Origin: Octopus vulgaris
Taxonomy: Eukaryota
Reading direction: 5' to 3'
Assembly: GCA_951406725.2 (NCBI GenBank)
Contig: OX597816.1
Coordinates: 177,568,001 to 177,632,000 of the forward strand
DNA length: 64,000 nt
Shown here: piece by piece, positions 2,152 to 63,311 of the stretch
Layout: each line of letters starts with the position of its first letter
How positions within the stretch are numbered: position 1 is the stretch's first letter
Notes under the pieces: model-generated
Told to the model about the DNA's origin: nothing
Database searches by the model: none
Seen by the model: only the letters and a program-made list of their open reading frames with translations
Made by a program: the position numbers and the translations under genes

Positions 2152-9713
<7,562 letters not shown>

Positions 9714-10208
9714 CGAGGACAGTGAATAGGAAAAAGAGATAGAAATGACATCAACGACTTGGAAATTGATGATGACAAGGAAGAAGATGCGGGCGAACAG
9801 GGTGGTGATTACAAAGGTAACGACGACGTTGTTATTTAACCCCAAATAAGCCCTGAACGAGTAGTCCAATGATTAAAGGCATTCTAGCCAGAACAAACAT
9901 CGTATTTTGAAGAATATGCAACTAATGCTTCTTACTTTTTTTTTTTCAGACGTTAAGAGATGCTTTGAAGATGTGGCTATTTTTTCTACCAGGTCTTACG
10001 ATTCTTAGCACAGCTTACAATTTGACTTTTTAAAAAATTTCTTTTTGTTTGTCCCTTTTGTTGTAACTCTCAACATACGAAATGGTGCCTTGAGGCCTGT
10101 TTATTTGTTAGTTGCTTACTGACATGTAGGGAGTGACTTCCAATAAAAAGGAAAGAGAACTTCGCGTGGCGACGCTGACGCACAATCGTTTGTACAATAG
10201 TGGCGACA

Positions 10209-10502: not shown

Positions 10503-10735
10503 TTGTGTGTATATTTGTGTGTCTGTCTTTGTCCCCCCCCCCAACATCCCTTGCCAACCGATGCTGGTGTGTTTACGTCCCCGTAGCTTAGCGGTTCGGC
10601 AAAAGAGGCCGATAGAATAAGTACTAGGCTTACAAAGAATAAGTCCTGGGGTCGATTTGCTCGACTAAAGGCGGCACTCCAGCATGGCCACAGTCAAATG
10701 ATTGAAACAAGTAAAAGAGTCAAAGAGTAAAAGAG
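10290..10735 (+). mobile_element. Full-length tRNA-derived SINE family A
   Basis: GGCGTAGGAGTAGCTGTGTGGTAAG A-box-like start, GGTTCAGTCAC B-box-like motif, internal TA/TG microsatellite, (AAAGAGT)n tail. Confidence 0.85.
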
Positions 10736-11925: not shown

Positions 11926-12210
11926 CCTTTACATTTTACTTTTTTCAGTCATTTGACTGCGGCCACGCTGCACCTCCAATGGTTTTGGTCGAACAAATCG
12001 ACCCCAGGACATTTTTTAAAGCCTAGTATTTATTCTATTAGTGCTTTTGCCGAACAGCTAAGTTATGGGGCCGTAGGTAGTGGGAGACATACACACACAT
12101 ACACAGATATATATACGCATGTATACAACGGGCTTCTTTCAGTTTCCATCTACCAAGTCCACTCACAAGGTGTTGGTCAGCTCGAAAATGTGGTTGGAAA
12201 GCAAGCTTCT

Positions 12211-14209
12211 TTATTTCATTACATTTGCCATGAAGGCAGTACATAGAGTAAAGTAGCTTTGCGGGCTGGACGAGGACATTAATGAAATGGATGATAATGA
12301 AAGAAAGATGATAAGGATGGGAGAAAACAAAAAACGCCCGCCGACTTCTGCTTCTCTAAAACATTGTTCTTTAAAACCAAACACAAAACAAGGTATTAAA
12401 CCTCTTACAACTTTTACAACTTTTCAATTTTTGGACTTAACAGTCCATTACAAACAACAACATAGTTCAATAATTACATATAATATAAATACAATACACA
12501 AAGCCCCTCCTCCCAGACCTGGCTTACACTTCCCTTAGGAATGCGCCAGCTCTAGGTCGGGGCCCCTCAAGTCGTATCTAAACATGTCCTATCAAACATA
12601 AAATATACATTATCACTTCTCCCTTTCTCCTCTTTCCGGACCTCCAGTCAAATATCCAGCCGCCTGCAGAGCAGATCACATTGACAGAAACAAAGCGAAG
12701 TGCCTATTATCAAATGTTTGTATCACACAGTGCCACAATTTATGACTCATCCTCAAAATAACTTGTGCCCGCATCCTCTGCCATCCTCCACGCCTCTTCC
12801 AAAACCACACCGAGTTCCGTGTTAGCGTTGCCTGGGAACAAGCGATATTCCTCATTGAGCTCCTCCAGCTCAAACGTCACGTCGAACGTCGTGGCCTCCA
12901 CAGCTATCTGCGGAGGCCATTCGGGGTCCTGTGTGAAGGCTGAAGGTGCTCCCTTATGGTGCTTTTCCATCACCTTTTCAATCTCTCCGCCTCTATGGAA
13001 GAAGATCAATACATCGTCTTTCCCCGGGGGCGGGATATTTAATTCTTTCATTGGCGGCACAGTTCCCGCCAACGGTGTTTCTTCTCCTGTCGGTGGATCA
13101 ACCCCAACCGACGTAGTTCCGGGACATTCCGGTACTATGTCACCGACTGCCGGCAATGTCCCGTTTCTCTTCCTCTTCCTCTTTTTTTTCTTTTCAACTG
13201 AGGGAGGGTGCGTCTCCTCCGTGGCCGGAAGATTCGCCTTTCCCTTCTCATCCCTAGGATCCTTTGGTGAGCACCCATTGTTGCTCACCTTCTTCCTCTT
13301 ACGGCCCACTAGGGTTTTATCCCGGGTGGTAGCCCGCAGATCCAAGCTTTCGTTAACCTCTTCCCATGATACGTGAGAAGAAATAAAATTTCCTTACCCT
13401 CCAGGGGTTGACTAGCAAATTTGCGAGCCTTTTCAGGGGTGTCAAATAGCAACCACACCGTTGCATATCTGACACCCCCGGAAATGAATTTAATTGTTGG
13501 CAAATACTCTGCCAACTCCTTTTCAATTGCCGTCTTTTCGAATAGGGCGATGGTGTCGAGTGCCTTGGAGTAGGTTTTCAACACCACCGTTTCTTTTTTT
13601 TTTTTAAATATATTCAAAATAAAACTTAAAAAGCGAGAAGAAAAAAGAAATCAAAAGATAGTCATAATAAACAAAAAGGAGCAAGTTAAATAAAGTTTAG
13701 CAGGAAGTCAATAGTTCAGGAACATAGCAAAAAAAAATCTTCCGGCCATTCGGTACTCCCGCCCTAGGTTGAATCCGGAACGCCACAACTGGAACACGAC
13801 TTCCACAAAAATTGATATACAAATTGTTCAATCTTCGGAGGTAAAACATTCCTCCAAATAGCAGTTCTCACAATTATTAAAGTTCTTCAAAAGGCACAAT
13901 ACAAGCAGTATTCTCATACTTAAGTGAGAAAAATATTCACTCAACATAAACCAAAGACGAATACGCCTCCAAACAAAAATTTTCACAATTCAGCGAGAAA
14001 AATTATTTGCTCGATGTCGGCAGAACCAGAATTCTGAATCCAGTAGGAATTCCTGCCTGTACAAAAACAATTCTCAACAAAAATTCTCACTGGACCCAAA
14101 ACACAGAATCTTACCTTACAATGGAGCTTCAAAATTTTTCAATTCGAGGCTTCAAAAGCATGTCTCATCTCTTTGGTGCCGAACACTACAATTATTCGCA
14201 CATGCGCAG
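12211..14209 (-). mobile_element. ORF1-only (HAL1-like) non-autonomous non-LTR retroelement, degenerate copy E
   Basis: Flanked by a ~15-bp target-site duplication GGAAGCAAGCTTCTT, with AATAAA at the 3' end. ORF 13309..13617 (ETVVLKTY...GGVRYATVWLLF...TYHGKRLTKAWICGLPP) aligns by eye with the ORF1s at 44-51 kb. ORF 12740..13345 has the basic KKKKRKRKR tract and EIEKVMEK C-terminal block. No RT or endonuclease is present. Confidence 0.75.
12740..13617 (-). pseudogene. Frameshifted, internally deleted ORF1 (gag-like) lacking the zinc knuckle
   Basis: Two ORF pieces match the N- and C-terminal blocks of the 44063 and 45745 proteins; the CCHC knuckle segment is absent. Confidence 0.65.
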
Positions 14210-16267: not shown

Positions 16268-17152
16268 AGGGCCGAACACAAAACGAATAGGGACAATACG
16301 ATACGAGGGACAAGTGGGGTGTTGAACAATGACTTGTATACAATGAATAACAATAACAAATAATCATAAAATTCTAACAACGGTAATCCCCAATAGGAGG
16401 CGTTCCACCATCCAGGGCCAACCAAAGCACCCTGAACATCCTCGTCACCCTGACCACCAAGAGCATGTCAGGCAGGCACCTCCTATTCCCTTTAACCGTT
16501 CAGGCCTACATACGAATGTTCAGGGGAGGCCCATTCACACGGGCCATCCGCGCCACATTCACCCACCTTTCAACAAAAATACTGGGCGGGAGAAGAACTT
16601 GCTTCTCTACCCACACTTTCCTCAAGTGCAACTTGAAAAAGTCGATGAGGGTTTGGCCGAAGAGGAATGTACCAGTCCTCAGTCCTTTCAGTCGCGTCCA
16701 CAACACTTCGCTATAGCCACCAAATAGAGGTTACTGCCTTCCCCGACCAAAGGAAGGCAGCGGGGTGATCTTCACGATGGACTCGGCTGATATCTGGATC
16801 CGTCATAAATGCGACAACTGCTGTTCGACAAAGCTCTACAAATCAGTAATGTACGGACACTGGACGAGTGAATGCAGGACGGCTTCATCGCACTGCACAG
16901 ACCTCGGACAGGTCCGTCTGACAGCACTTCTGTGTCTGTAGAGCTTCTCTCGACCGGTAGAGTTCTCTGGTAGCAATTCCAGGGATTTCTAAAAGTTATC
17001 CATAAGCCCTGACACAAAAGTACTACGGAAAATATACCTCCCAACGCCCAGAGCTTCCCCGAGAACGTCGTTGCTCTTGCCCGCTATTAATCCCCAATAG
17101 AACTCCATAGTGAAATTTCCACCGACCGAGTTGCCCGACTTGTAGAAAGCTG
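16268..17152 (-). mobile_element. 5'-truncated Tx1/L1-like LINE: ORF2 C-terminus with CCHC zf-RVT, plus 3' UTR
   Basis: Frameshifted CPR.C..CDEAVLHSLVQCP motif near 16850-16915, followed by LWTRLKGLRTGTFL...FVERWVNVARM. Confidence 0.7.
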
Positions 17153-17226
<74 letters not shown>

Positions 17227-17229
<3 letters not shown>

Positions 17230-18274
17230 ATAGACACACAAGAAACAAGCACAGAAAAAGCTAAGCGTATGAAAACCCGTGCCAAAACTGCGGCCTTAGA
17301 TATTCTGAATAATAAATGGCAAGAAAAACCTCTCTATGGCAAATACCCAAAGAGAGCGAATAATGCAGTTATCGACAAAGCCCTGACACATCAATGGCTA
17401 ATGGCCTCTGGCTTAAAATCTGAAACAGAGGGGTTTATCATAGCAGCTCAAGATCAATACCTACCAACAAGAAACTACCAGGCCAACATATTAAAGAACG
17501 GCAGTAGCCCAACATGTCGTGTATGCCGACAACAAAATGAAACCATTGATCATGTTGTCTCCAAATGCAGTCTTCTAGCGCCTACAGAGTACCTCAATAG
17601 GCATGATAGAGCTGCACAATATATTCACTGGGTAATTTGCAAAAACCTGGATTTGCCCCATGAAAAAAAACTGGTGGGAACACAATCCACCTCCTGTGCT
17701 TGAAAATGACCACATCTCACTCCTCTGGAACTTCACCATTCAAACTGACAGGAAGATAGATGCAAATAGGCCAGACATCATATTGAAAGACTTCAGGCAA
17801 AGAACATGCCTCCTCATTGATATGACTGTCCCAATCGATATAAACGTATCTGTCAAGACCTACCAGAAACTGAGCAAATATAAAGATCTTGAAATAGAAA
17901 TCAGCAAAATGTGGAAGCTGAAGACTAAAACAATACCTGTTGTCATAGGTGCCCTGGGAATGATAGCGAAAGGGACTGATTGCTATCTAACTCAGATACC
18001 AGGAAACCCCAAAATGGCAGAAATTCAAAAGATAGTGCTCATGGGAACTGCTCATATCCTACGCAAAAAGGTTTAAAACAAACTTTTTTTTATTTTACTT
18101 ATTTTTTTTTATTTTTTTTTTTTATGTATTAGACATTCACTAGTACAACACCAAAAAAACTCCCCAAAAAACCCTCCAAATATATGGCACAGAACTTCCA
18201 ACCTGTTGTCTCTTGAGGTTTCTGGGTGAGACTTGGAGCCAACTTGTACAAACATAAAGCAAAAGTCAAACATA

Positions 18275-22489: not shown

Positions 22490-24215
<1,726 letters not shown>

Positions 24216-37810: not shown

Positions 37811-37811
<1 letters not shown>
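36875..37811. repeat. Large inverted repeat (~448-bp arms, ~40-bp spacer), probably derived from a Penelope-like element
   Basis: 36875-37322 is the near-perfect reverse complement of 37363-37811. Each arm carries a hammerhead-like motif. The left extension (36803-36880) also occurs reversed at 26790-26873. Confidence 0.85.
37735..37784 (+). ncRNA. Minimal type I hammerhead-like motif (mirror copy at 36902-36951, minus strand)
   Basis: caaaaactgt-CTGATGA-a-cg-gcaa-cg-a-GAAAC-tcaga-GTA-acagattttg; stem I pairs 9 of 10. Confidence 0.6.
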
Positions 37812-37877
<66 letters not shown>

Positions 37878-38044
37878 GGGGGCGGGCGGGGAGAATTCAC
37901 AAAAAAAAGAACAAGAGACGAAAACAGGTGGTGTAGAAAACAAACAGATGTATTAGTATAGTGGTCGGGAAGTGAAAAAGTCTTCAACGTTTCGAGCCTA
38001 TACTCTTCCACAGAAAGGAACACACACACACACACACACACACA

Positions 38045-38109
<65 letters not shown>

Positions 38110-38110
<1 letters not shown>

Positions 38111-39158
38111 CTCTATATAAAACTGAGAATGTGTGCCTGTCTGTCTGTCTGTCTGTGTGTTTCCCTAAAACTTGAGAACTACACAACCAATTTCATTCAA
38201 ATTTTACACATGCCTTACTTAGGGTCCATGTAGTTTCATGGGCAAAAAAAAATGTTCAACTTCTTGCCTAGAGCGAGCCCATAGCAATATCATATCTTCT
38301 CCACTATTTCAGTATTATGTGTTAAAAGTGAAAAAAAAGCATTTCTCTATTTTATGTCACATACTTTCACTTTAACAATAAAAATAATAACAACAATTGA
38401 ATTATATGTAGTAAGTAATAATTAAGATTAAACTAAAGTATATAATATAAGCGTAACATAACAAAAGTAAAAATAGCAATTGGTATAAAATTGCATCAAT
38501 GACTTGAACTTGAATAAGTGGTTTCCCATGAATGGGAATAAATTAAAAATAAAAATAAAATTAGCGTGCAGAAATAGAATAGTCCAGATGGATAATAAAA
38601 AATTAAATGAAAGAAAAGACTATTGTCTATAAAGTATACAATGTAGAGAAAAAAGATTTGAACACCTGGAGGAAAATACCATCGAAAAGTGTCTTGGTGC
38701 GACTATGAAAGATATCTAACCAGAGTCGGTAAATTCGCCACAATAGAAGCAAGGTTCGAGTCAACGGAGCATGCAAGGGAGTACTCGACTCGAACTTGCA
38801 AAGTGGAAATATTTTATTTTTACCTTTATATCTGGGACGTAGGACGTCCCGGATAAAAATTTAAAATATCCGCCCCCCACACAATAGCAGTAGAGGTAGG
38901 CTGGATTGTAGCCACACTTCTATACACGAGGGAGGACAAGATACAATTGATCGAAATTGCAAGAGACGGGCTTACAATTCCAGTCTGTTATATATTTTGA
39001 GTATTGTTATCACTAGCGATATCAAGATATAACTTTGTATTTTGTATTTTATGTGTAGATGTATATATAGAGATGTACATGTATATGTACACATATATAT
39101 ATACACATATATACATGCACTAGCACTATGACCCGGCAACGACGGGTCATAATGCTAG
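38110..39158 (+). mobile_element. Non-autonomous Helitron carrying a captured ORF1 fragment (empty copy)
   Basis: A|TC 5' end (TCTCTATATAAAACTGAG followed by (CTGT)n), subterminal hairpin ATGACCCG-gcaacga-CGGGTCAT, 3' end CTAG|T, no TSD. Confidence 0.85.
38611..38975 (+). pseudogene. Captured fragment of a Tx1/L1-type ORF1
   Basis: Reads KTIVYKVYNVEKK...TIEKCLG...RVGKFATIEARFE...VEVGWIVATLL...EDKI, aligning with RTIVYRV...RGSKYGTVVVHF...VEAEWIVAAVI...EDEV of ORF 45745..47163. Confidence 0.7.
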
Positions 39159-39268
39159 TATATATATATATATATATATATATATAACAATTGCAGCATG
39201 GAAGGTGTTTATAAGTCATTTCAGAAACACACAAAAACCGTTAGATTCACTTCAACATTTAAATTTAA

Positions 39269-39319
39269 TTTGTCAAAATATTTTCGTCGCTTTGAGTCCG
39301 CGACCTGTTCACTGACAAA
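39269..39319 (-). ncRNA. Hammerhead-like motif with G3-C8 swapped core
   Basis: Minus strand: tttgtca-GTGAACA-g-gtcgc...gcgac-GAA-AATATT-T-tgacaaa. Confidence 0.5.
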
Positions 39320-40094
39320 ATTCTGTGCTGCATCTTATTTATATATATATATATATATATATATGATATTTACCACGTGAGCTGCGAGGAAAAGAATATG
39401 TAAAAGATATGGTATATGATTTTTTTTTTGTGCAAGGGTTCCTTGAGACATGTAATTTATTTTAAGGGTTATGTAAGGGTAAAATGGTTGAGAAATATTG
39501 GTCTATGGCATAGATGCTATAGAGGAGATGGTCACTCTGCATTTCATAAGGGTGGGTGGGGGTAACTGAGAAGAAAATAAAGAGGGTAGTGAAAGAGTAC
39601 CAGAGTAAACTGTCCAGAAGCAAGGAAGTGAGCACAAGAGAGGACATGGTCAGTGAATGAGGAGGGTAAAGGAGAAGGGTATGTGGTTATAAGAATGTGA
39701 GGGGAGGAGTAACAGGTGGTTAGAGGTGGGGTAGAGATGAATGTAGTGAGTGATGAAACGGGTGGAGGTGTAGCATGATGGGAGATATCAATATGGGTGA
39801 GGGTGGGTGGTTAAGGCGTGAGAGAGAAAGAGGTTACATAGGGATGAGAGGTCAGGAAGTAGGGAAAGATGACCAAGGCTTAGGGAGAGTGGAGCAAATG
39901 TAGAGGGAGATAAGGGTGGCTACAGTGAGTGTGGCACAGCAACAGGTATAAGAGGTATTAAGATGGGGTACGGCGGAGGAGGAGAGGAGATGAGTGGAGG
40001 CTGAGAAAGGAAGTAATCAGTGAAAATAGTGTGAAAGGGGATGAGGATGAGAATGAGGGATGGAAGTTGTGCGTGGGGGGCGGAGGCAGTAATT

Positions 40095-40290
40095 GGTGGC
40101 ACAAAAGAAATTTTTTTTGTGGGTGGGGGTCGTCGTTGTCATCGCCCCCAATGCGTAACTGGTACTTATTTAATCAACTTCAAAAGGATAAAAAGCAAAG
40201 TCGACCTCGGTGGAATTTGAACTCAGAAGATGGTCAAAATACTCGCAAAGCATTTTGCCTGGCACGCTAACGCTTCTGCCAGCTTGCCAT
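40095..40290 (-). mobile_element. SINE family B
   Basis: Homologous to the 18345-19360 copies. Confidence 0.7.
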
Positions 40291-40562
40291 CTTACCTCAG
40301 CATAATGATAACAAATCAGAATATCTCTGGAGAACATCTACAGTTATTTTGAAACTTATAAGATAACTGGAAGTTAATAGAGGACCCATGAAATATATAC
40401 TGTATTGCCTGTGTACAAGGCACACCTTTTGTTTACTTTTAAATATATCAAAATATTGTTAGGTATCAGACGTGGCCCTGTTATGGATGAGAGACCGACT
40501 GTTGTAGGGCTGGAGCATAAGATGAGCAGAAGTTTGCTGAGTATAATAATTATTACTAATAC

Positions 40563-40977
40563 TCTCTTTTACTTGTTTCAGTCATTTGATTGCGGCCATG
40601 CTGGAGCACCGCCTTATTCTTTGGTGCTCCAAGGACTTATTTGGTGCTTCAAGGACTTATTCTTTGGAAGCCTAGTACTTATTCTATCGGATTCTTTCGC
40701 TGAACCACTAAGTTACGGGGACATAAACACACCACCATCGGTTGTCAAGTGATGTTAGGGGGACAAAGAGACACAAACATACACACACATACATATATAT
40801 ATATACATATATACAACAGGCTTCTTTCAGTTTCCAACTACCAAATCCACTCTCAAGGCTTTGGTCGGCCCGAGGCTACAGTAGAAGACACTTGCTCAAG
40901 GTGCCAAGCAGTGGGAATGAACCCGGAACCATGTGGTGTGTAAGCAAGCTACTTACCACACAGCCACTTCTGTACCT
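40563..40977 (-). mobile_element. SINE family A, full length
   Basis: Reverse complement of 10290-10735. Confidence 0.82.
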
Positions 40978-40986
40978 AATAATTTC

Positions 40987-41824
40987 CTGACTGGCTGGCC
41001 CTGTTTTGGATGCCTGGCTGGCCCGGCCTTGGCTTGCTGGCTGGAATCTGGCCTAGGCTGGCTGCCTGGCCGGAAGTTGGCTGCCTGGCTTGCCCGGCCT
41101 TGGTTTGCTGGCTTGAAATTGGCCTAGTCTGGCTGGCTGGGCGGTCCTTGGTTGCCTGGCTGGCTCGGTCTTAACTTGCTGGCTGGAAACTGGCCTAGCC
41201 TGGCTGGCTGGCCCGCCCTTCGCTTGCTGGCTGGAAACCGGCCTAGGCTGCCTGGCTGGCCCGTCCTTGGTTTGCTGGCTGGAAACTGGCCTAGCCTGGC
41301 TGGCTGGCCCGCCCTTCGCTTGCTGGCTGGAAACCGGCCTAGGCTGCCTGGCTGGCCCGTCCTTGGTTTGCTGGCTGGAAACTGGCCTAGCCTGGCTAGG
41401 CCTTGGCTGCCTGGCTAGGCCTTGGCTGCCTGGCTTGCACGGCCTTGGTTTGCTGGCTGTCCGGGCCTTGGTTGCCTGGCTGGCCCGGATTTGGCTTGCT
41501 GGCTTGAAATTGGCCTAGTCTGGCTGGCTGGGCAGTCCTTGGTTGCCTGGCTGGCCGGGCCTTGGTTGCCTGGCTGACCCGGCCTTGACTTGCTGGCTGG
41601 AAACTGGCCTAGGCTGGCTGGTTGGCTGGCCGGGCCATGGTTGCCTGGCTGACCTGGCCTTGACTTGCTGGCTGGAAACTGGCCTAGGCTGGCTGGCTGG
41701 CTGGCCGGGCCTTGGTTGCCTGGCTGACCCGGCCTTGACTTGCTGGCTGGAAATTGGCCTAGGCTGGCTGGCTGGCCGGGCCAGCCAGGCATCAATGGTA
41801 CGGCCAGCCAGCTAGCCTAGGCTG
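40987..41824. repeat. GC-rich minisatellite (CTGG-based; ~38-bp subunit, ~75-bp higher-order unit)
   Basis: TTGCTGGCTGGAAACTGGCCTAGGCTGGCTGGC...CCTTGG is repeated; the translated ORF 41152..41418 repeats every 25 aa. Confidence 0.85.
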
Positions 41825-41899
41825 TAAAATAGAAATGTGACTTACGCAATTCTGTGTCTTACATGCTAGAAAATATAGTGTAAAAGGGAGGTATGTGAA

Positions 41900-41946
<47 letters not shown>

Positions 41947-42241
41947 AATGGAAGTGAACATGAAAAGGAAAATCAAACAGCGTTTCAGCTCTGTGTGTGT
42001 ATGTGTACAAGGGGAGTACGTAAATGTATGTGTGAACCAGCATTCTTTCAGTAACAAATAATGATCAATGTCACATCTCAAAAGACAACCACCAGATAAC
42101 ATTGACAAGTGTATTAATTTGATTTACCATCCATAGTTATATAAAAAGTACTACAATTAGCCGTCATTTTTGATGGCACGGGGCCAGCTAGTATGCATGT
42201 AATTATTGCAAATGTATTAAAAATATATGTGTGTGTGTATG

Positions 42242-42277
<36 letters not shown>

Positions 42278-42279
<2 letters not shown>

Positions 42280-42388
42280 TTGTGGAATGTCTTGTTGGCG
42301 AAGAATGTGTTAGTGATGCACAGGTTATGGTATGTACAAAATTCAAGTAGTCTCTGACCATTATCATTCATGTTGCCAATACCAAAAC
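42278..42388 (-). pseudogene. RTE-like LINE apurinic endonuclease fragment
   Basis: FGIGNMNDNGQRLLEFCTYHNLCITNTFFANKTFHK is a typical RTE-clade endonuclease segment. Confidence 0.7.
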
Positions 42389-42474
42389 ACATACACTTAC
42401 ATATATATATATACATATATATACGATTGATTTGTTTCAGTTCCTGTCTACGAAATCCACATATATATATGTAT

Positions 42475-42510
<36 letters not shown>

Positions 42511-42599
42511 AAACACACACACACACACATAGATAAATTGATAGATACAACTGAGTGGGCAAACAAAAATATGAGACACTGCGTAGTGCTTTTTTTATA

Positions 42600-42885
42600 T
42601 TTTGATAAGCCTGGTACTTATTCTATCAGTTTCTTCTTGTGAAACCAGTAAGCTATGGGGATGTAAATAAACGAACACCAGTTGTGAAGCAGTGATGAGG
42701 GAGAAACACAAAAACACATACATAGATTTACATATATACATACATATACATATAACTGAATTCTTTCAGTTTCTGTCTACAAAATCCACTAACAAGGCTT
42801 TGGTTGGTCTGGGGCTATAGCAGAAGACATGCCAAGTGACCACAGTTTTGGAACCGAGTTAGTTACCACACAGCCACACCTGCAC
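42600..42885 (-). mobile_element. SINE family A, degenerate
   Basis: Homologous to the other family A copies. Confidence 0.65.
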
Positions 42886-43093
42886 TTATGTATGTGTGTG
42901 GGGGGGTGTATGTGTGTATGGGTGTATATATGTATGCATGTATATATGTGCAAACATATGTGTACATATTACATGTACATCTATATAAATATACATCTAG
43001 ACATACATGTATACACATACATGTATATCTATAGAAATACATTTATACAGCTATACATATACATGTATACATATACAGCTATATATATGCATG

Positions 43094-43125
<32 letters not shown>

Positions 43126-43152
43126 TACATTCATATATATACCTGTATATGC

Positions 43153-43195
<43 letters not shown>

Positions 43196-43916
43196 CATAT
43201 ACATACATTAGAGAGATGTTTTTGTTTCACTTTTAACACGTAATACTGAAATAGTGGAGAAGATAAGATATTGCTGTGGGCTCGCCCTATACTAGTATTA
43301 AAGACCCGTCGTTGCCGGGTCATAGTGCTTGTGCATGTATATATGTGTATATATATGTGTACATATTACATGTACATCTATAACTTTTTTTTTCTTTTAC
43401 TTGTTTCAGTCATTTGACTGTGGCCATGCTGGAGCACCGCCTTTAGTCGAGCAACTCGACCCTGGGACTTATTCTTTTGTAAGCCCAGTACTTATTCTAT
43501 CGGTCTCTTTTGCCGAGCCGCTACATCAACACATAAAATACAAAATACAAAGTTATATCTTGATATCGCTAGTGATAACAATACTCAAAATATATAACAG
43601 ACTGGAATTGTTAGCCCGTCTCTTGTAATTTCGATCAATTATATCTTGTCCTCCCTCTTGTATAGAAGTGTGGCTACAATCCAGCCTACCTCTACTTCGG
43701 GGGGGGGGGGCATTTTAAATTTTTCTCCAGGACGTCCTAAGTCCCAGATATAAAGGTAAAAATAAAATATTTCCACTTTGCAAGTTCGAGTCGAGTACTC
43801 CCTTGCACGCTCCGTTAACTCGAACCTTGCTTCTATTGTGGCGAATTTACCGACTCTGATTAAATATCTTTCATAGTCGCACCAAGACACTTTTCGAAGG
43901 TGCTTTCCTCCATGTT

Positions 43917-45591
43917 ATTTCTTTATTACCCACCAGGGGCTACGAAGAATGGCGGACATAACAAAACATGGGGGACATAGAACAATATGATTAAATTCAT
44001 GAGCAAATGAAAATGAAAAAATGATAATATGAAAGCGATGCTAACGGCCCCCTCCGCCAGCATCACTTACCTGTCCTTTTGTTTTCACTGTCACCTGAAT
44101 GTTCATTCCCAATACGAAGACCATCCATATCCATTCTTACTCCGAAACTGTCCTCCATATATTCCACGAATTCATCGCTCATTCTTGTATCTTTCACCTC
44201 CCAATTCTCCCTTTCACACCTCAACACAAACTCATCTATATTCTTCTTTTCCAGCACTGCATATCTGGTCCCATCCATTTCATACCATTCATACTCCTCC
44301 ATTACCCTTTCAACCTCTTTCTGTTCAGTCACAATATAAATGTTCGGCCTGGGTTCGTTTTCAAACTCTTGTCTGTCTGTATTATTATTTTTCTTTTGTT
44401 TTCTTGTTGGAGGGGAGCGGGTGGGTTCACTGTCTGCGGGGGAAGGGTGGGATTCAGAGGGTGCGGGTGGTGTTGGGGTGGGTTGGGGCTTCGCACAGTT
44501 TTTCTTTTTCTTTCTTTTTCTCTTTTTTCTTCCTTCTTCCCACTCTTGTTGCATCTCCTCTTCTTCTGTCGTTTCTTTTTCCCTTTGATTCTCTTTGGTT
44601 TCTTCCTCTTTTGGGGCTTCCGCGACGATTTCCTTTTCTTTTTCCTTTGGTGGGGGAGGGCAGTAGGCTCTTATGTGACCCCTCAGGCCACACTTGTAGC
44701 ACCTGGGCGCCCTACCCTCCACCCACACTCTCATAATAATATTTCCAGTTTTTATACTGTCCGTAAGCTTTTCTATAACTTCCGCCTCCGTCTGTATGTT
44801 CATTACTAGTGTGGCACCTCTCACGCCTTCATATTTCATAATGGCGTGGAGGATGTCCACTTTATCTTCATTTCCTTTGATAACCGCAGCCGTTATTAAT
44901 TCGCCCTCTAGGTGTGGAGGTATTCCTTCCACCCTAATTCTGGTGGTCCTTCTATTCAAATACGAAGGGAACAAGTAAAACTTTTCTGTACTCACCACCT
45001 TGGCTGCTATATTCCTGGCTGCTTTCTCCCTTTTAAATTGTACCGTTATGGTTCCATATTCTAATCCTTTTGTCATGTACACAATTTCTTCTCCTGTCTG
45101 TTTGAAAGCCTCTTCAATTGCTTCCATGTTAATCACTTCCATTTTTCTACCTCCATTCATAAATACTTTATATTTAATGGTTCTACGATAGAACCAGTCT
45201 CCGCGCCCTGCTAGAGGCAACAGCTCAACCTCTCCGTTCTCCCCCTCCTTCATGAACTCCTGGAAGTCCGTCAACTTAGCCAGGTCTATCTCTTTTTCTG
45301 TTGACTTCTTCGTTATACCTGCGTAGGTGCTTTCCATTTTTTTCACCGCCAACTCCTTCTCAGATGTCGACGAATTTTCAGAGAAATTTCTCCCTTCCAT
45401 CTCATCCGTTTGGTAGAGGCGGCTCATAGTCGCCTCAGACCGAAAAACGGCCTCCCGAACAGAAAACGTGCGACGCACAGAACCAGTGCGACGCGAAACC
45501 GCACCAACCGACGTTCCAATTCCGCAACCACAATTCACTTTTTGTTCTTTTTTCTTTTTTAACCGAATTTTACTGAGCGCAAAAAAACGCG
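43917..45591 (-). mobile_element. ORF1-only (HAL1-like) retroelement A
   Basis: 5' end CGCGTTTTTTT, a single ORF, ~150-bp 3' UTR ending TGTCC...CTTCGTAGCCCC.GGTGGGTAATAAA, no ORF2. Confidence 0.8.
44063..45427 (-). CDS. Intact ORF1/gag-like protein (~454 aa from MSRLYQ) with CCHC zinc knuckle
   Basis: RVWVEGRAPRCYKCGLRGHIRAYC (CX2CX4HX4C), an upstream RRM-like region typical of Tx1/L1 ORF1, and a basic NLS-like tract. Confidence 0.8.
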   Translation of the reverse strand: MSRLYQTDEMEGRNFSENSSTSEKELAVKKMESTYAGITKKSTEKEIDLAKLTDFQEFMKEGENGEVELLPLAGRGDWFYRRTIKYKVFMNGGRKMEVINMEAIEEAFKQTGEEIVYMTKGLEYGTITVQFKREKAARNIAAKVVSTEKFYLFPSYLNRRTTRIRVEGIPPHLEGELITAAVIKGNEDKVDILHAIMKYEGVRGATLVMNIQTEAEVIEKLTDSIKTGNIIMRVWVEGRAPRCYKCGLRGHIRAYCPPPPKEKEKEIVAEAPKEEETKENQREKETTEEEEMQQEWEEGRKKRKRKKKKNCAKPQPTPTPPAPSESHPSPADSEPTRSPPTRKQKKNNNTDRQEFENEPRPNIYIVTEQKEVERVMEEYEWYEMDGTRYAVLEKKNIDEFVLRCERENWEVKDTRMSDEFVEYMEDSFGVRMDMDGLRIGNEHSGDSENKRTGK

Positions 45592-47342
45592 TATTTCTTT
45601 ATTACCCACTAAGGGGCTACGAAGAATGGCGGACATAACAAAACATGGGGACATAGAACATTATAATTAAACTATATGAACATGAAGTGTTAAACGAAAA
45701 AAATGATAAAATGAAAGCGATACCAACGGCCCCGTCCGTCAGCATCACTTACCTGTCCTTTGTTTTTCATAGTCACTTGAATGTTCTTTGCCAATACGAA
45801 TAAATTCCATATCCATTCTTACTCCGAAATACTCATTCATATTTTCCACGAATTCATCGCTCATTCTTATATCTTTCACCTCCCAATTCTCCCTTTCACA
45901 CCTCCCCATAAACTCACCTATGTTCTTTTTTTCAATCACAGCATACCTAGTCTCTCCAACATCATACCGTTTATACTCTTCCATTAGACTTTTAACTTTC
46001 CTCTGTTCAGTCATAGTACAAATGTACGGCCTGGGTTCGATTTCAATCTCTTGTGTGTGTGTATTCTTTTTTTTCTTTTGTTTTCTTGTTGGGGGGGAGC
46101 GGGTGGGTTCAATGTCTGCATGGATAGGGTGGGACTCAGAGGGTGTGGGAGGTTTTGGGGTAGATTGGAGTTCCATATTATTTTCTTTTTTTCCACATAT
46201 TCTTCTCTTCCTCTTACTTCCAGCTTCCTTCCATTTCTGTGTATTCTCTTCCTCTGTTTCCTTCTCCTCTGGTTTCTGCTTCTCTCTCTCTGGTTCGGGA
46301 TCCATTTCTTTCCCTGGGGGAGGGCAGAAGGCTCTTATGTGACCCCTCAGGCCACACTTGTAACAACGTGGAGCCCTGCCCTCCACCCACACTCTCATGA
46401 TCACTTCTCCCAGTCTGATGCTTTCCGTCAGGTCCACCAGTACCTCGGTCTCTGCCTGTACGTTCAGCTCCACTGTTACGCCTCTCCAGCCCTCAGACTT
46501 AACCGAGGCATGGAGAATATCCACTTCGTCCTCGTGGCCGCTGATCACAGCCGCCACAATCCATTCTGCCTCCACGTTTGGTGGCACTCCCTCCACCCTT
46601 ATTCGTGTAATCCTCCTGTTTAAATACGTAGGTAACAGTGTTACCTTTTCCGACTTCACCGCCTTCGCTGCCATCTTCCTCGCTGCAGATTCACTTTTAA
46701 AGTGCACAACTACGGTCCCGTACTTGGATCCTCGAGTCAGAAAATTTATTTCCTCCTCAGTTCTTCGCAGGGCTTCCTCTATCCATTCCATGGATACAAC
46801 TTCTACCCTCTTCCTTTCGTTTGCGCACACCCTGTAAACAATGGTCCTCTTGTCATACCATTCTTTTCTCCTGGGTGTCGGTGATAGTTCCACCTCACCG
46901 CTTTCCTTTTTCATGTATTTCTGGTAACTTGGCAACTTGGCCATGTCGACCCCTTTCTCTTCCGCCTTCTTGGTTACACCGGCATAGGTATAACCCAGCT
47001 TCTCTTCCAATTCCCTTGCTGCCATTTCTAGCTCCTTCTCAGACGTAGGCAAGTCTGATAAAGACTCGAAAACTCCAGCCTTTTCTTCCATCAGCTTCAT
47101 TGCAATTGCCTGTTCCAGTTCCTCATCTGTCGTGGACAAGTCTGTTAGAGACTCAGAATCCATTTCCCTCTGTCTGACAGACCGAAAACGGCCGCCAAAA
47201 CAGAAAAAGTGTAACGCGCTGAACGAGTGAAACGCGAAACCGCGTCAACGCCGTTCAGAATTTCCACAACAACAACAACGCTTTTTGTTCTTTTTTTACC
47301 GAATTTTACGAGCGTAAAAAACACGGAGCCGAAAAAACGCGA
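45592..47342 (-). mobile_element. ORF1-only (HAL1-like) retroelement B
   Basis: Same termini as A, with a near-identical 3' tail, directly abutting the 5' end of A. Confidence 0.8.
45745..47163 (-). CDS. Intact ORF1/gag-like protein, 472 aa, with CCHC zinc knuckle
   Basis: ATG start; RCYKCGLRGHIRAFC; clear but diverged paralog of the 44063 protein. Confidence 0.82.
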   Translation of the reverse strand: MDSESLTDLSTTDEELEQAIAMKLMEEKAGVFESLSDLPTSEKELEMAARELEEKLGYTYAGVTKKAEEKGVDMAKLPSYQKYMKKESGEVELSPTPRRKEWYDKRTIVYRVCANERKRVEVVSMEWIEEALRRTEEEINFLTRGSKYGTVVVHFKSESAARKMAAKAVKSEKVTLLPTYLNRRITRIRVEGVPPNVEAEWIVAAVISGHEDEVDILHASVKSEGWRGVTVELNVQAETEVLVDLTESIRLGEVIMRVWVEGRAPRCYKCGLRGHIRAFCPPPGKEMDPEPEREKQKPEEKETEEENTQKWKEAGSKRKRRICGKKENNMELQSTPKPPTPSESHPIHADIEPTRSPPTRKQKKKKNTHTQEIEIEPRPYICTMTEQRKVKSLMEEYKRYDVGETRYAVIEKKNIGEFMGRCERENWEVKDIRMSDEFVENMNEYFGVRMDMEFIRIGKEHSSDYEKQRTGK

Positions 47343-49125
47343 TTTTTTTATTACCCACAAGGGGCCACGAAGAGGGGGACATTACAAGACGGGACATGGG
47401 GTACATAAAGTAAAAATAAAATATGAAGTAAAAGATGAATTTATATGTAATGAGATGGAACGGCTTACGAACCCCCAACTCGCAGTTCCGTTTAAAATAC
47501 AATTATACATTTCATATATTCCAGTTCAAAATACAATTTTACAGTTACATATATTCCAGTTCACAGTACAATAATTTTACAATTTTACATGTTAACATTA
47601 CATATATTCCTGTTCAAAAACACAACTTTACATCAAATAATTTTACAAGTAACAATTCTAATTCTTTTACATTAGACACTCGTCCGTCATATAATCCAAT
47701 AGGTCCGTTTGATCTATTACATCTGGTAATTTATCATACCGTACATAATGCATTATATGCATAGCATGATATATCTTTTTTAATTTTGTGTATGTCTCCT
47801 TTTACATCTTCACCATACAGTTTTGGGTTCACCTTCACCCTGACCAACCCTTTCTTACCTACAAGTCTCTTTTCCACTTCTGTATTCTTGATATACATCA
47901 CAACTGCCTTCAAGTTTTTTCCTGTAGGCCTTCTTCCATATTTACACGATTCCAATTGTTCGTTCACTCTTGTCTCCCATTCTTGTTCAAACTCTGTCCT
48001 TGGTCGCTCTCTCACCTTTTCTTTTACTTCCTGTTCTTTTTCTCTTCTCTCTCTTCTGCTATCTTGCTTTTGATTTTTTTCTTTTTTATATCTTTCGGTG
48101 GTGATTCCACCCTTGATCTCTTCTTGTCTTCTGTTTTTTCCTCTTCTGCACTTGCTCGTTCTTCCTCATTTAACTGCTCCTCCATTTGTGTTTCCTCCGC
48201 TTTCGCTTCCTCCACACACGCTTCTTTACACTCCTCTATCACAACCTCTGGTGCTTTTGTTTTTTCTCGCGGGCACACATCCTTCATGTGGCCCCTCGAT
48301 TTACAGTTATAGCAAATTGGGGGTCTTCCCTCTACCACAACTCGGAGCCGTGTTTCGTCAGGGTAGACCAACTCCTCCGGGATGTTGTACAGGTCTCGCA
48401 CGGTTATGTGTGCCAGAACCTGCACCGTATATCCCCACCACTTCACCTCTGCTGACTTCTCCACCTTCAGTACCTCCACATCATCCTTGCAGTTAAACAG
48501 CACTGCTGCCAGCAACCTTTCCATATTAAATTCGGGTGAGATTCTATTGATTCTCATCCTCACTGCTCTCCTTCCGCAGTAACTTGGTAGCAAAGTCCAC
48601 TTATCCGATTTCAAAATTCTTGTAGCGTTCTTTTTTGCCTCCTCTTCTGTTTTAAAATACACCACTACCGTGGCATACTTCCTTCCTCTTTTAAAAAATG
48701 CTGGTTCACCCTCAATTTCCTTCAGACACCTTTCCACTTCTTCCATTTCCGCTACTTCAATCTTCTTCGACTCCACGCACCACGTCCTGTACGTTATAGT
48801 ACGCTTCTCTGCACTGCTTTCCTCCTCCTCGGACGGTGTGACTATCACACAGTCACCCTCCCTCTTTAAACTGTCGAAATACTTCTGTAAAGTCTTCTGT
48901 TCGACCATCACCTCCTCCATTTCCAGTTCACCGGCAACCAGGCCTCTGCCTGCCGCTCGCGCGTAAGTCTGCTCTTGCATTTTCAAGAAAAAATTATTCC
49001 ACGTCCTCCAACGAACTCGAACTCACAACCTCTTTACTCGAAATAAACACACCAGAATAAACACACCAGAATAACTCCAACTAACTAACTCAAAAAAAAC
49101 ACGGGAGCCGAAAAAAACGCGACCG
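47343..49125 (-). mobile_element. ORF1-only retroelement C (second subfamily)
   Basis: 5' end CGGTCGCGTTTTTTTCGGCTCCCGTG; 3' end ATGTCCCCCTCTTCGTGGCCCCTTGTGGGTAATAAA. Confidence 0.8.
47734..48980 (-). pseudogene. ORF1/gag-like with CCHC knuckle, frameshifted
   Basis: ORFs 48024..48986 (RVVVEGRPPICYNCKSRGHMKDVC) and 47734..48015; ~20-bp deletion relative to copy D. Confidence 0.75.
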
Positions 49126-49155
49126 TTTTTCCTCTACATTGTATACTTTATAGAC

Positions 49156-51005
49156 TGTTTTTTTATTACCCACAAGGGGCGACGAAGAGGGGGACATTAC
49201 AAGGCAGGACATGGGGTACATAAAATAAAATAAAATATGAAGTAAAAATGAATTTTATGTAATGAGATGGAACGGCTTACGAACCCCCAACTCGCAGTTC
49301 CGTTTAAAATACAATTATACATTTCATATATTCCAATACAATTTTACAGTTACAATAATTTTACAATTTTACATTTCATATATTCTAGTTCAAAATACAG
49401 TTTTTCCAGTTACATATATTCAGTTCAAAGTACAATAATTTTACAATTTACATGTTAACATTACATATATTCTTGTTCAAAATACAACTTTACATCATAC
49501 AATTTACAATTAACAATTCTAATTCTTTTTCTTTTACGTTAGACGCTCGTCCGTCATATAATCCAATAGATCCATTTGATCTATTACATCTGGTAATTTA
49601 TCATACCGTACATAATGCACTATGTGCATAGCATTATATATCTTTTTTAATTTTATGTATGTCTCTTTGTCTATAATGACGCCTTTTACATCTTCACCAT
49701 ACAGTTTTGGGTTCACCTTCACCCTGACCAACCCTTTCTTACCTACCAGTCTCTTTTCCACTTCTGTATTCTTGATATACATCACAACTGCCTTCAAGTT
49801 TTTTCCTGTAGGTCTTCTTCCATATTTACACGATTCCAATTGTTCGTTCACTCTTTTCTCCCATTTTTGTTCAAACTCTGTCCTTGGCCACTCTCTCTCC
49901 TTCTCTTTTACTTCCTGTCCTTTGTATGTTTTCTCTTCTGCTATCTTACTTTTGATTTTTTCTTTTTTAGATCTTTCGGTGGTGATTCCACCCTTGATCT
50001 CTTTCTATCTTCTGTTTTTTCCTCTTCTACACTTGCTCGTTCTTCCTCATTTAACTGCTCCTCCATTCGTGTTTCCTCCGCTTTCGCTTCCTCCACACAC
50101 GCATCTTTACACTCCTCTATCACAACCTCTGGTGCTTTTGTTTTTTCTCGAGGGCACACATCCTTCATGTGGCCCCTCGATTTACAATTATAGCAAATTG
50201 GGGGTCTTCCCTCTACCACAACTCGGAGCCGAGTCTCGTCAGGGTAGACCAACTCCTCCGGGATGTTGTACAGGTCCCTCACGGTTATGTGTGCCAGAAC
50301 CTGCACCGTATATCCCCACCACTTCACCTCTGCTGACTTCTCCACCTTCAGTACTTCCACATCATCCTTGCAGTTAAACAGCACTGCTGCCAGCAACCTT
50401 TCCATATTAAATTCGGGTGAGATTCTATTGATTCTCATCCTCACTGCTCTCCTTCCACAGTAACTTGGTAACAAAGTCCACTTATCCGACTTCAAAATTC
50501 TTGTTGCATTCTTTTTTGCCTCATCTTCTGTTTCAAAATATACCACAACCGTGGCATATTTCTTTCCTCTTTGAAAAATGTGGGTTCACCCTCAATTTCC
50601 TTCAGACACTTTTCTACTTCTTCTATTTCCGCTACTTCAATTTTCTTCGACTCCACGCACCACGTCCTGTACGTTATAGTACGCTTCTCTGCACTGCTTT
50701 CCTCCTCCTCGGACGGTGTGACTCTTACGCAGTCACCCTCCCTCTTTAAACTGTCGAAATACTTCTGTAAAGTCTTCTGTTCGACCATCACCTCCTCCAT
50801 TTCCAGTTCACCGGCAACCAGGCCTCTGCCTGCCGCTCGCGCGTAAGTCTGCTCTTGCATTTTCAAGAAAAAATTATTCCACGTCCTCCAACGAACTCGA
50901 ACTCACAACCTCTTTACTCGAAATAAACACACCAGAATAAACACACCAGAATAACTCCAACTAACTAACTCAAAAAAAACACGGGAGCCGAAAAAAACGC
51001 GACCG
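49156..51005 (-). mobile_element. ORF1-only retroelement D (close relative of C), flanked by a 30-bp duplication
   Basis: TTTTTCCTCTACATTGTATACTTTATAGAC occurs at 49126-49155 and 51006-51035. Confidence 0.8.
49534..50860 (-). pseudogene. ORF1/gag-like, broken into three ORFs
   Basis: ORFs 50492..50866, 49941..50546 and 49534..49851 together reconstruct the copy C protein. Confidence 0.75.
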
Positions 51006-51543
51006 TTTTTCCTCTACATTGTATACTTTATAGACAATAGTCTTTTCTTTAATTTCATTTTTTATTATCCATCTGGACTATTCCATTTCTGCACGCTAAT
51101 TTTATTTTTATTTTTAATTTATTCCCATTCATGGGAAACCACTTATTCAAGTTCAAGTCATTGATGCAATTCTATACCAATTGCTATTTTTACTTTTTTT
51201 ATGTTACGATTATATTATACTTTAGTTTGATTTTAATTATTACTTACTACATATAATTCAATTGTTACTATTTTTTTATTGTTAAAGTGAAAGTATCTGA
51301 CATAAAATAGAGAAATGTTTTTGTTTCACTTTTATCACGTTATACTGGAATAGTGGGGAAGATATGATATTGCTGTGGGCTCGCCCTAGGCAAAAAGTTA
51401 AACATTTTTTTTGCCGATGACACTCCCCGGACCCTAAGTAAGGCATGTGTAAAACTTGAATGAAATTGGTTGTGTAGTTCTCAAGTTTTAGAGAAACACA
51501 CAGACAGACAGACAGACAGACATTCTCAGTTTTATATATATAT

Positions 51544-51589
<46 letters not shown>

Positions 51590-56797: not shown

Positions 56798-57013
56798 TTG
56801 TGTGTCTGTGTTTGTCCCCCTAGCATTGCTTGACAACCGATGCTGGTGTGTTTACGTCCCCGTCACTTAGCGGTTCGGCAAAAAAGACCGATAGAATAAG
56901 TACTGGGCTTACAAAGAATAAGTCCCGGGGTCGATTTGCTCGACTAAAGGCGGTGCTCCAGCATGGCCGCAGTCAAATGACTGAAACAAGTAAAAGAGTA
57001 AAAGAGTAAAGAG
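56589..57013 (+). mobile_element. SINE family A, full length
   Basis: Close match to 10290-10735, with an (AAAGAGT)n tail. Confidence 0.88.
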
Positions 57014-60748: not shown

Positions 60749-63311
60749 TCATTTGTACGATTTCTCTATAAGTGTGTTTACAAGGGGAATCTTAGAGAAG
60801 AGAATATGGAAGAGTTCAGAGTTGCAAATGTTACAAAATCTCCTGCCCTTATCAAAAGGAAAGGATACAGACAGTATGAACCAATCTAACTTAAAATCTA
60901 TATTATTGTCTTTAAGACGCCAAACTAATTTACTTAGCCCTGTACTATGTCGTTTTTTACTATCCCTGAATGTTGAATAATGGTTTGAAATCCTCTTGGA
61001 TAACTGGGAAGTGGACACTCCTATATAGAAGAAGACATCGGTACCGGAAGAAATTCTATACTGGTAAATAGAATTCTTAGTCTTAGAATTACTAAACAAA
61101 AATTTAATTCTGTTGGGATTGTCCTCCGAGATCGAAACGAAGTTTTTATTGCTATGATTGTTGTTACTATTATTATTAGCACTACCAACAACACTATTCC
61201 TATTATTATTATTAGTATTATTAATGGTAATACAACCAATAATACCATCAACAATAATACCGTTATTGTTATTACCATTAACATTACCATTGTTATTAAC
61301 ACGACTATTACTATTATTATTATTATTATTATCATTGTTAACACTATCACTACTACCATTGCTATTACTATTAATACTATTCCTATTATTATGAATGTAT
61401 GATGGGTTGGAATTAGCAAGATTAATGCTGGAACTCCCGGGTGAAGAACCTTTATTTAGCAGCTTAGTTTTGTGAGAAGATATAATTTGTGAAAGATTTC
61501 TAGTGTTAGAGAAAGCGATTCAAACTATGTGGGAATTGATAATAGAATAATATCTAGAATGTTGGGGAAAGTTCCTAGCAACGGCTTCACGGAACTGCAA
61601 GGGAAGGTTCGATTTAATTTGTTTACCGAAAGGTATTACGACCCAGATACAGTTTTTAGTGACCTTTAAATTGTACGTAGTGTTATTTGTAAAAAGTAAG
61701 GAGAAAATTTCTGGGTTGGAAATTTGGGGTTGAATGGCGCTTACCTCCCCTGGTCTGTAAAGAATTTATATTGTGTATAAGGCTGCTTGCACTATTAGAA
61801 TTAAAATCACTATTCCTATTACAAGTAACTATTTTATCTGGCGAAGCAGATGTTGGTTTAGAATGAGCTGAATTGATGTATGACACTTTCTCTCTATAGT
61901 CGGCTTTTAACAAGGCGGCGTTATAGAAGTCTGCCTTTTGGTTAAAAATGTCAACATTGGCAGATAATTTAGACAGTCTCAGAGATATGTTTTTGAATAA
62001 GTTATCGGTAACTGGCCTAGCATGATTACTGTAAAGGCTAATATACTTAAGATTTGTGAAAGGTTTATGATAAGGGAAGTATGAGTTATTCTGTAAATTG
62101 AGGGTAATGTATAAGAAGTTGGCTTTAGTTAACTCATCGTCAAAAACGATGCGCAAGCCCATTCTACTAAAAACCTAACTAATCTGTTCTTAACCTTCTG
62201 TATTTTTTGGTTTGAAATGTTTTGGAGGTAAAGCAGAGAATCGTCACGATAAAGACCTCCTGCGCGTAAGATGTCCGGGAATTGGTCGACCAATTCATAA
62301 AGAATATATATTCCGACCAAATCGGCTATCTGGGCGCTGTTTGTACTTCCCATTAGTACATCAAACGCATTAGGAGTATCTCTGCGGACCCACAACTTGC
62401 TATCGAACTGGATGAATGATTTCCTATCAGTCAATATTACATTAATTTTTCCCCAGAGAGGCCTGCCTTACTGTGTGCGTGTCATAGGGCCTTATTAAGT
62501 ATAATAGGGTTGATTGAAGAATAGAAACTAGATATATCGAATTGGATAAATTTAGTGTTGGCCTTATCAGTAATAGAAGTAAACCAATCTACGACTTGAG
62601 CAGAATTGGACCATAAGCTAAGTTTTAATTTATTAATTAATATAGGGATATACTTATCTAATATGTATTTGCTAAGAGTACCGATGTCTGAGCTGGAAGG
62701 GCATATAAGCCGCAATGCTGGGTTAGCATAAAAGTTCTGCTTGTGGTCTTTTTAAATAAACCTGGGATGCCTGGGGTTCAATGGTTCTGTCTTCATCTGT
62801 AATCCATAAGTTTCCATAATCCATTTAGCTTCCAAGTTGGCCTGCCTGAGAGTATTCCTACTGGTGGTTTTGTAATTTTTATGGATCTCCTTTTCGAGCA
62901 GTTCCAAATAGTGGCTTTTGGTAAGCTTATAGAGGTTTCCGGTTTTATCCGATTGAACTAGGATGTAATCTAAGTTATTGATTTCTCTAGAGACGTTATT
63001 AAGGTATCTGAGGTGCTTATTCCTGAGGGGTGATCGATGAAATTTAATATTCTTTACGATGGCCCAAAGATCATCTTCGAATTTCTTCAATCTAGGATTA
63101 GGTGGAGGCGTAGCCTTCGATTTAAATAGTTTTTATATTCATTAGAGATGTCGTTACTGGTCTCTTTTAGGTCCTTATTGTTGTGGAAGAAGGCGAGCCA
63201 TCTGATGCGGATGATAAATACATTAGTCTTGTTAATGAGTTCCTTAAGGAAAGCTTTTTTCGGTGGAATAGGAATATCCTTAAGGGAGGCGTTAATATTG
63301 AACAACTCCAT
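60749..63311 (-). pseudogene. PLE RT + GIY-YIG polyprotein with multiple frameshifts
   Basis: ORFs 63087..63311, 62752..63090, 62482..62715, 62129..62434, 61683..62162 and 60749..61099 lie in collinear domain order. Confidence 0.85.

Follow-up and report, generated by a model that had tools for sequence, protein, structure and literature searches.

A mixed head-to-tail stack of ORF1-only non-LTR elements within a Helitron-like element of Octopus vulgaris

Mammalian HAL1 elements carry a poly(A) tail and a target-site duplication (TSD). As described in the papers cited in this paragraph, HAL1 is non-autonomous and encodes only ORF1p, the product of the first open reading frame (ORF1) (PMC5753468); HeT-A of the Drosophila telomere encodes Gag/ORF1 with no pol, forms head-to-tail arrays of mixed families, and borrows its reverse transcriptase (RT) (PMC5537684); R1 tandem arrays form when a new copy enters the TSD at the 5' end of one already resident (PMC2718515), and double-insertion dimers have been reported in Drosophila (10.1101/158386); and Zepp/ZeppL, L1-type elements of green algae, target existing copies by nested insertion and build clusters (PMC8226300). 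Here we describe a stack of four ORF1-only elements without long terminal repeats (non-LTR elements), units A to D, in Octopus vulgaris. The window analysed is a stretch of 64,000 nucleotides (contig OX597816.1, 177,568,001 to 177,632,000), and all coordinates below count from its first letter.

Two questions are open: why ORF1 stays under selection in a non-autonomous element, and by what means non-LTR elements find their targets. Both are usually approached through HAL1 of mammals and HeT-A of Drosophila. The octopus family provides an independent natural test of both in many lineages, and is apparently recently active because the closest protein homologues, which are O. vulgaris gene models, carry B-type C-terminal domains up to 99% identical to that of unit B. 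Units A to D likely belong to an old octopod family that is apparently undescribed: the literature searched, outside which lie Repbase, Dfam, and the Zenodo library of PMC13282606 (any of which may catalogue the family), contained no description of cephalopod ORF1-only or stacked elements, and no such cephalopod family is described in the text of PMC13282606 or in the available portions of PMC9115989 and PMC2881922.

Anatomy, divergence, and selection of the four units

The stack occupies 43917-51001 on the minus strand and consists of four same-strand units of 1.7-1.85 kb, each built of a CGCG-T-tract leader, a single ORF1 gene, a 3' untranslated region (UTR), and a common tail.

43917..45591, minus strand: unit A; leader, 164-bp 5' UTR, intact 454-aa ORF1 (44063-45427), 146-bp 3' UTR, tail
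45593..47341, minus strand: unit B; doubled leader motif, intact 472-aa ORF1 (45745-47163), 152-bp 3' UTR, tail
47343..49121, minus strand: unit C; ORF1 stays open over 318 aa (48024-48980) before the frame shifts; 330-bp 3' UTR, tail
49122..49155, minus strand: 34-bp flank duplicate between D and C; 30 bp of host sequence plus CGGT
49158..51001, minus strand: unit D, of C's subfamily; ORF1 in three frames (50492-50860, 49941-50585, 49534-50004)
51002..51035, minus strand: upstream copy of the duplicated 34-bp flank, by sequence match

In the whole window there are exactly four occurrences of the leader CGCGTTTTTT and exactly four of the tail GTGGGTAATAAA, all of them inside the array, against 0.14 and 0.015, respectively, expected from base composition. 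Since the 3' UTRs of A to D measure only 146-376 bp and their longest stop-free frames only 41-53 codons, the units contain no ORF2, and a Pfam scan combined with frame inspection detected no endonuclease (EN) or RT in any of them. At the C/B and B/A junctions the tail runs directly onto the next leader with 0-1 extra base. The D/C junction holds 36 bp between the units, 34 of which (49122-49155) are identical to 51002-51035 upstream of D; 30 of these match the empty host copy described below, the remainder being CGGT. Target duplication is thereby seen around D only, with none clear around C-B-A. Two of the four 3' junctions (B and C) abut a leader, and the other two (A and D) abut unrelated host bases. 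Units end in AATAAA plus at most 7 A, with no long poly(A) in any unit; the A-rich tails AATAAA(G/A)AAAT recur after B and after A. The leader motif of B is doubled, and ~28 bp of it is common to C and D although the body of B is A-like. The consensus fold of the tail is weak (-6.8 kcal/mol, compensatory change in 1 of 17 pairs), so no structured signal is claimed, and Rfam gave no match over 36000-45400.

The original prediction, made from the letters of the window, had described four same-strand units of 1.7-1.85 kb, each with a common leader, zinc-knuckle ORF1, and tail and lacking EN and RT, all of which holds; its claim that no spacer separates them is correct for C/B and B/A but not for D/C. 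It had also called for an AlphaFold model of ORF1. With a 40-row alignment, AlphaFold2 returned a block predicted local distance difference test (pLDDT) score of 90-97 over residues 71-280. The top Foldseek rows were tandem-RRM proteins (best E 1.7e-5), VIA Z reached 9.5 on RRM domains, and zf-CCHC was present in 22 of the 40 aligned members. In Atlas, a ZCCHC3-like RBD1/RBD2 cluster scored 0.90, ranked behind unnamed arthropod zinc-knuckle clusters, while features for the C-terminal domain all fell below 0.9 and gave no assignment. On these models ORF1 is a type I non-LTR ORF1p with two RRM folds and one CCHC knuckle, using the classes of PMC5203782, which distinguishes type I (RRM plus CCHC) from the mammalian L1 type. 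L1 ORF1p was absent among the fold matches listed, which excludes nothing. In unit B the RRM-RRM-CCHC core spans ~aa 100-282 and the C-terminal domain ~aa 375-470.

The ORFs of A and B are, as predicted, intact and well diverged (58% protein identity, 72% DNA identity). C matches B at 39% identity across 207 aa, and protein identities among A, B, and C span 32-58%. The array holds three lineages rather than the two subfamilies first proposed, A and B being only 72% identical in DNA. C and D do encode a distant protein between the same termini, but the ORF1 of each is broken by two private frameshifts, placed by alignment at about 48054 and 47798 in C and at about 50572 and 49961 in D, three of the four lying in or beside base runs or dinucleotide repeats. 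The C-terminal domain of C runs on in other frames to ~47673, and the lost C-terminal part of C/D matches homologues P0023 and P0013 and is therefore real coding sequence. Ungapped sites of C and D show 96% identity, and 69 mostly synonymous substitutions separate the two in 1802 columns; the first 306 aligned bases, 34-bp flank included, are identical and the rest is ~4-5% diverged, a distribution with P ~5e-5 under an even spread.

Purifying selection acts on ORF1 (Fisher p = 3e-20 and 3e-8). The ratio of nonsynonymous to synonymous substitution rates (dN/dS), which had been suggested as a check for A against B, is 0.15 in the A/B core; for C/D the open frame gives 0.11-0.21 and the C-terminal domain ~0.33. 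Together with the ORF1-only anatomy, these values uphold the proposal of a non-autonomous family that keeps its own ORF1. In the C-terminal region of A/B, dS is ~0.2 and dN/dS 0.85, compared with a dS of 1.8 in the core, and A and B are therefore recombinant; both the C/D and the A/B pair are mosaic.

Insertion site and relatives elsewhere

The array is flanked by the two halves of a ~1-kb element with Helitron-like ends. Non-autonomous Helitrons begin with a 5' TC and end with a 3' hairpin followed by CTAG, and these ends are present in both the filled and the empty host copy.

51006..51545, minus strand: host 5' half, Helitron-like; 5' TC end near 51545, start of fragment F at 51003-51059
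43288..43915, minus strand: host 3' half; remainder of fragment F to ~43600, insert resembling a short interspersed nuclear element (SINE) at 43383-43522, hairpin and CTAG near 43290
38108..39162, plus strand: empty host paralogue, 94-95% identical at ungapped sites; uninterrupted fragment F at ~38600-38990
12200..13750 (ends approximate), minus strand: unit E, a solitary, distant, decayed or internally deleted ORF1-only relative (E 3.7e-10)

The host carries ~370 bp of a decayed ORF1 of the same family (fragment F), on the same strand as the stack that interrupts it; F scores 22.1 bits, compared with a maximum of 5.1 in 1800 shuffled frames. Both flanks of the host align colinearly with the empty paralogue, which lies ~5 kb from the stack. 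Around C-B-A, the filled copy lacks 6-7 host bases that the paralogue has, and its upstream junction carries 4 extra non-host bases; by this comparison the 6-7 bp difference is likely a target deletion. Around the insertion site, the DNA of F and of A to D has nothing alike beyond short AT-rich words, so homology-guided targeting of F is unsupported. Helitron rolling-circle amplification of the units was considered and rejected, as the units lack host ends and the empty host lacks units. The nesting of the stack in F within a Helitron-like element, and the relative E, had both been missed by the original prediction. E ends in AATAAAGAA-like sequence, has a T-tract near its 5' end, is closest to O. 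sinensis XP_029652367, and groups with O. sinensis P0108 on the tree described below. A further short piece of the Helitron-like host (43201-43289) adjoins the 3' end of the filled copy, and the SINE-like repeat that interrupts it recurs at 10589-10734, 27993-28128, and 56868-57007.

A profile search returned 713 proteins at E <=0.001 and 226 at 1e-10. Among 21 matches looked up, the nine with names were all from octopods (O. vulgaris, O. sinensis, O. bimaculoides, and Argonauta hians) and the other 12 were ENA/Logan records. In a 33-row tree, A/B, C, E, and F stand on separate long branches with weak backbone support, A/B, C, and E being separate deep branches that each lack ORF2; a well supported sister clade of ENA records (P0083, P0088, P0096, P0123, P0132) has a longer conserved C-terminal domain. 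No EN or RT domain was found by Pfam in 27 long homologues, picked from 150 listed of the 713, a result of little weight, given that an ORF2 would normally form an ORF of its own; also weak is the finding of no longer or fused ORF1-ORF2 protein among 8000 candidates retrieved with a four-row core alignment. All 14 loci of a metagenome scan matched the knuckle only and gave no relatives, scans of viral collections also gave no relatives, and the tail pattern had 0 matches in prokaryote genomes.

A splice donor lies at the end of the A/B ORF, and gene predictors employ it, chaining the C-terminal domains of neighbouring copies. Two chained A/B C-terminal domains are present in 27 of the 47 O. 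vulgaris models retrieved, and three in another 3; once adjacent accessions are merged, 27 of 37 loci carry 2-7 same-strand copies, frequently from different subfamilies (26 by motif count, plus P0203), examples being CAI9732827-29, CAI9726623-25, and CAI9718264-68. These clustered copies are spread over many chromosomes. Neighbouring chained copies differ at 0-9 of 86 residues, with no differences in P0002, P0177, P0188, and P0196, and in P0185 an A/B-type end is joined to the core of another subfamily. No clear upstream/downstream polarity of subfamilies was seen in the chained models. In other models (P0003, P0182, P0183) the predictors join an A/B C-terminal domain to sequence unrelated to it, a CFAP65-like gene among others; these fusions are likely annotation artefacts, with exonisation as a less likely alternative. 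The family explains dozens of spurious O. vulgaris gene models, such CFAP65-like fusions among them, and some of the repeats classed as 'Unknown' (15%) in the latest annotation (PMC13282606, supplement table) may belong to it.

How the stack may have formed

The reading that we favour, and to which we give about an even chance, is that A to D are trans-mobilised octopod ORF1-only non-LTR elements, stacked by repeated separate insertions at or beside the 5' ends of resident relatives. Unit RNAs would be copied in trans by the EN/RT of an autonomous long interspersed nuclear element (LINE), with the conserved 60-nt tail acting as the RT recognition signal, and ORF1p would package the RNA of its own element, which would explain selection on ORF1. 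Judged by ORF1 type, the likeliest RT donor would be the L1-Tx1 group; 13 recently active L1-Tx1 families occur in O. vulgaris, besides CR1, RTE, and Dong-R4 (PMC13282606, Table 1). For D, reverse transcription would have started from a nick 34 bp upstream of C, its cDNA pairing with the 5' end of C at resolution, so that between 34 and ~306 bp became duplicated. The addition of C and B upstream of A would have gone likewise, and the doubled leader of B may be a target duplication left by the insertion of C.

From its flanks, D appears to be an insertion separate from C-B-A. As D is flanked by a host duplication, a single template-jumping run cannot explain it, so that of the two routes first proposed, insertion at 5' ends or template jumping, the second fails for D when taken as one run, while C-B-A fits either. 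D as a plain or neutral duplicate of C was also rejected, given that the repeated segment stops exactly at the tail, the differences are mostly synonymous, and 306 identical columns are followed by 69 substitutions. The geometry of D, the nesting in F, and the clustering elsewhere together favour repeated insertion beside relatives. A more far-reaching version, rather doubtful at present, is that octopods hold an ancient, deeply diversified RT-less ORF1-only superfamily that homes to its own members; within it we would suggest, just as tentatively, that the landing site is supplied by every copy itself, as its CGCG-T-tract leader or as conserved ORF1 sequence, giving mixed-subfamily head-to-tail stacks at dozens of interstitial sites, which would amount to a HeT-A-like way of life outside telomeres.

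Several points weigh against repeated insertion beside relatives. The clean C/B and B/A joins, without host-derived duplication, suit template jumping equally. The upstream units C and D are more broken than A and B (four frameshifts versus none), which is the opposite of what 5'-ward growth predicts, unless the frameshifts are RT or assembly errors. No target motif common to the 3' junctions of A to D was seen, and no autonomous RT partner was found in the protein, metagenome, viral, and prokaryote scans. At the DNA level the stack is read from one locus in a 64-kb window. The gene models show clustering, short of proven tail-to-leader contact; their sample, composed of proteins of at least 182 aa and cluster mates, is biased in favour of multi-copy models, and with 15 of the 19 members of the largest cluster listed and six single-copy models unmapped, inclusion of the latter gives 27 of 43 loci. 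Recombination may have spread the ORF2-less 3' end between A and B, and part of the selection signal on ORF1 could predate the loss of ORF2.

The strongest competitor, possible but on the unlikely side, is that C-B-A arose in one event, a borrowed RT jumping end-to-end from A RNA to B and then C within one ORF1p particle, with D arriving later and separately. Exact tail-to-leader joins with 0-1 extra base, the full length of all units, the absence of duplicated host DNA between C, B, and A, the 4 non-host bases at the upstream junction, and the mixed subfamilies within chained gene models all agree with such jumping, and L1 ORF2p and R2 RT form concatemers of this kind in vitro (PMC10830420 and PMC11371274). 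It would, however, require three different lineages to be packaged together, and it leaves unexplained the landing of D 34 bp from C, the position of the stack inside F, and the C-type leader extension of B. Growth in the opposite direction, with each new copy entering the A-rich tail of the previous one at an L1-type TTTT/A-like nick, seems improbable. Alu and L1 copies do insert into poly(A) tails, the A-rich AATAAA(G/A)AAAT tails recur after B and A, and the order host, C (broken), B, A (intact) forms a decay gradient; yet long poly(A) is absent from all units, the 3' junction of D is not A-rich, and the solitary E ends in similar AATAAAGAA, which makes the tail look like part of the element itself and not like a duplicated target.

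Untargeted tandem duplication or unequal exchange, combined with gene conversion from dispersed copies, or in part an assembly error, could produce the identical chained copies of some gene models and the mosaic C/D and A/B pairs, but we regard it as quite improbable. A, B, and C share only 32-58% protein identity and C/D differ mostly at synonymous sites, on which grounds simple tandem duplication is rejected, as the original prediction had already done from the divergence of the units; moreover, the breakpoints coincide exactly with the ends of elements, and the flanking host sequence keeps the order of the empty paralogue. Of the sampled words, 32-67% are present in public runs from 8 studies (20 of 24 rows listed), which also speaks against an assembly error; none of the listed runs matching these words has an RNA source on record. 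Least probable, and in our view very unlikely, is that each unit derives from an autonomous two-ORF LINE by its own recent internal deletion, without any ORF1-only lineage that persisted. A separate ORF2 would escape protein searches, and the recombination between A and B leaves room for this view; against it, C and D have the same ORF2-less 3' structure yet diverged under selection, ORF2 is missing alike from A/B, C, and E, which stand on deep branches of their own, and, weakly, the 27 long homologues scanned (from 150 listed of 713) contain no EN or RT.

Surrounding DNA and comparison with known systems

The window is microsatellite-rich animal DNA. It includes ~7 kb of (GAT)n/(AAT)n microsatellite at ~2100-9900, with 0% GC over 4001-8000, a 359-bp unit in six tandem copies at 28630-30720, five of them 99-100% identical, and a GC-rich, CTGG-rich degenerate tandem repeat with 48- and 75-bp periods at 41000-41820. 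Other mobile-element remnants are an ORF fragment at 17146-17703 (plus strand), which we take to resemble the C-terminal part of a Dong/R4-type LINE, a presumed Tc1/mariner-like transposase fragment at 22751-23293 (plus strand), and fragments at 60749-62174 (minus strand) that presumably resemble Penelope RT and GIY-YIG endonuclease.

The comparisons that follow draw on the papers cited above for each system. Like HAL1, the octopus units are ORF1-only and without ORF2, but their ORF1 is of type I (RRM-RRM-CCHC), whereas mammalian L1 ORF1 is of the Transposase_22 type (coiled coil, one RRM, CTD), and the octopus family is found in octopods and is stacked; membership in HAL1, suggested by the original prediction, fails on ORF1 type. 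The octopus ORF1 resembles type I ORF1p of the L1/Tx1 group and ZCCHC3-like proteins in its tandem RRM and CCHC (PMC5203782), differing from both in having a single knuckle plus an unassigned C-terminal domain. Lacking an RT, the family is unassignable to a clade, although its ORF1 type taken by itself would fit Tx1; the Tx1-style target specificity once proposed does not stand as worded, with no RT to place the units and no target motif common to their 3' junctions.

HeT-A is likewise gag/ORF1-only and arranged head-to-tail in mixed company, as are the subfamilies of the octopus stack. In contrast, the octopus stack is interstitial, lying inside a Helitron-like element with an empty paralogue, and its 3' UTRs of 146-376 bp differ from the unusually long 3' UTR of HeT-A, which carries the promoter for the downstream copy; membership in HeT-A thus fails on the interstitial site and the short 3' UTR. 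R1 arrays and dimers have a target duplicate between copies, as does the octopus D/C junction, but R1 is autonomous with a fixed 28S target, while the octopus units have no fixed target motif and two of their three junctions lack a host-derived spacer. Zepp offers a possible likeness in the placement of D beside C, the stack inside F (both at one DNA locus), and the clustered gene models; Zepp, however, has EN and RT and forms mostly 5'-truncated arrays with one cluster per chromosome, whereas the octopus units are full length, RT-less, and present at many loci.

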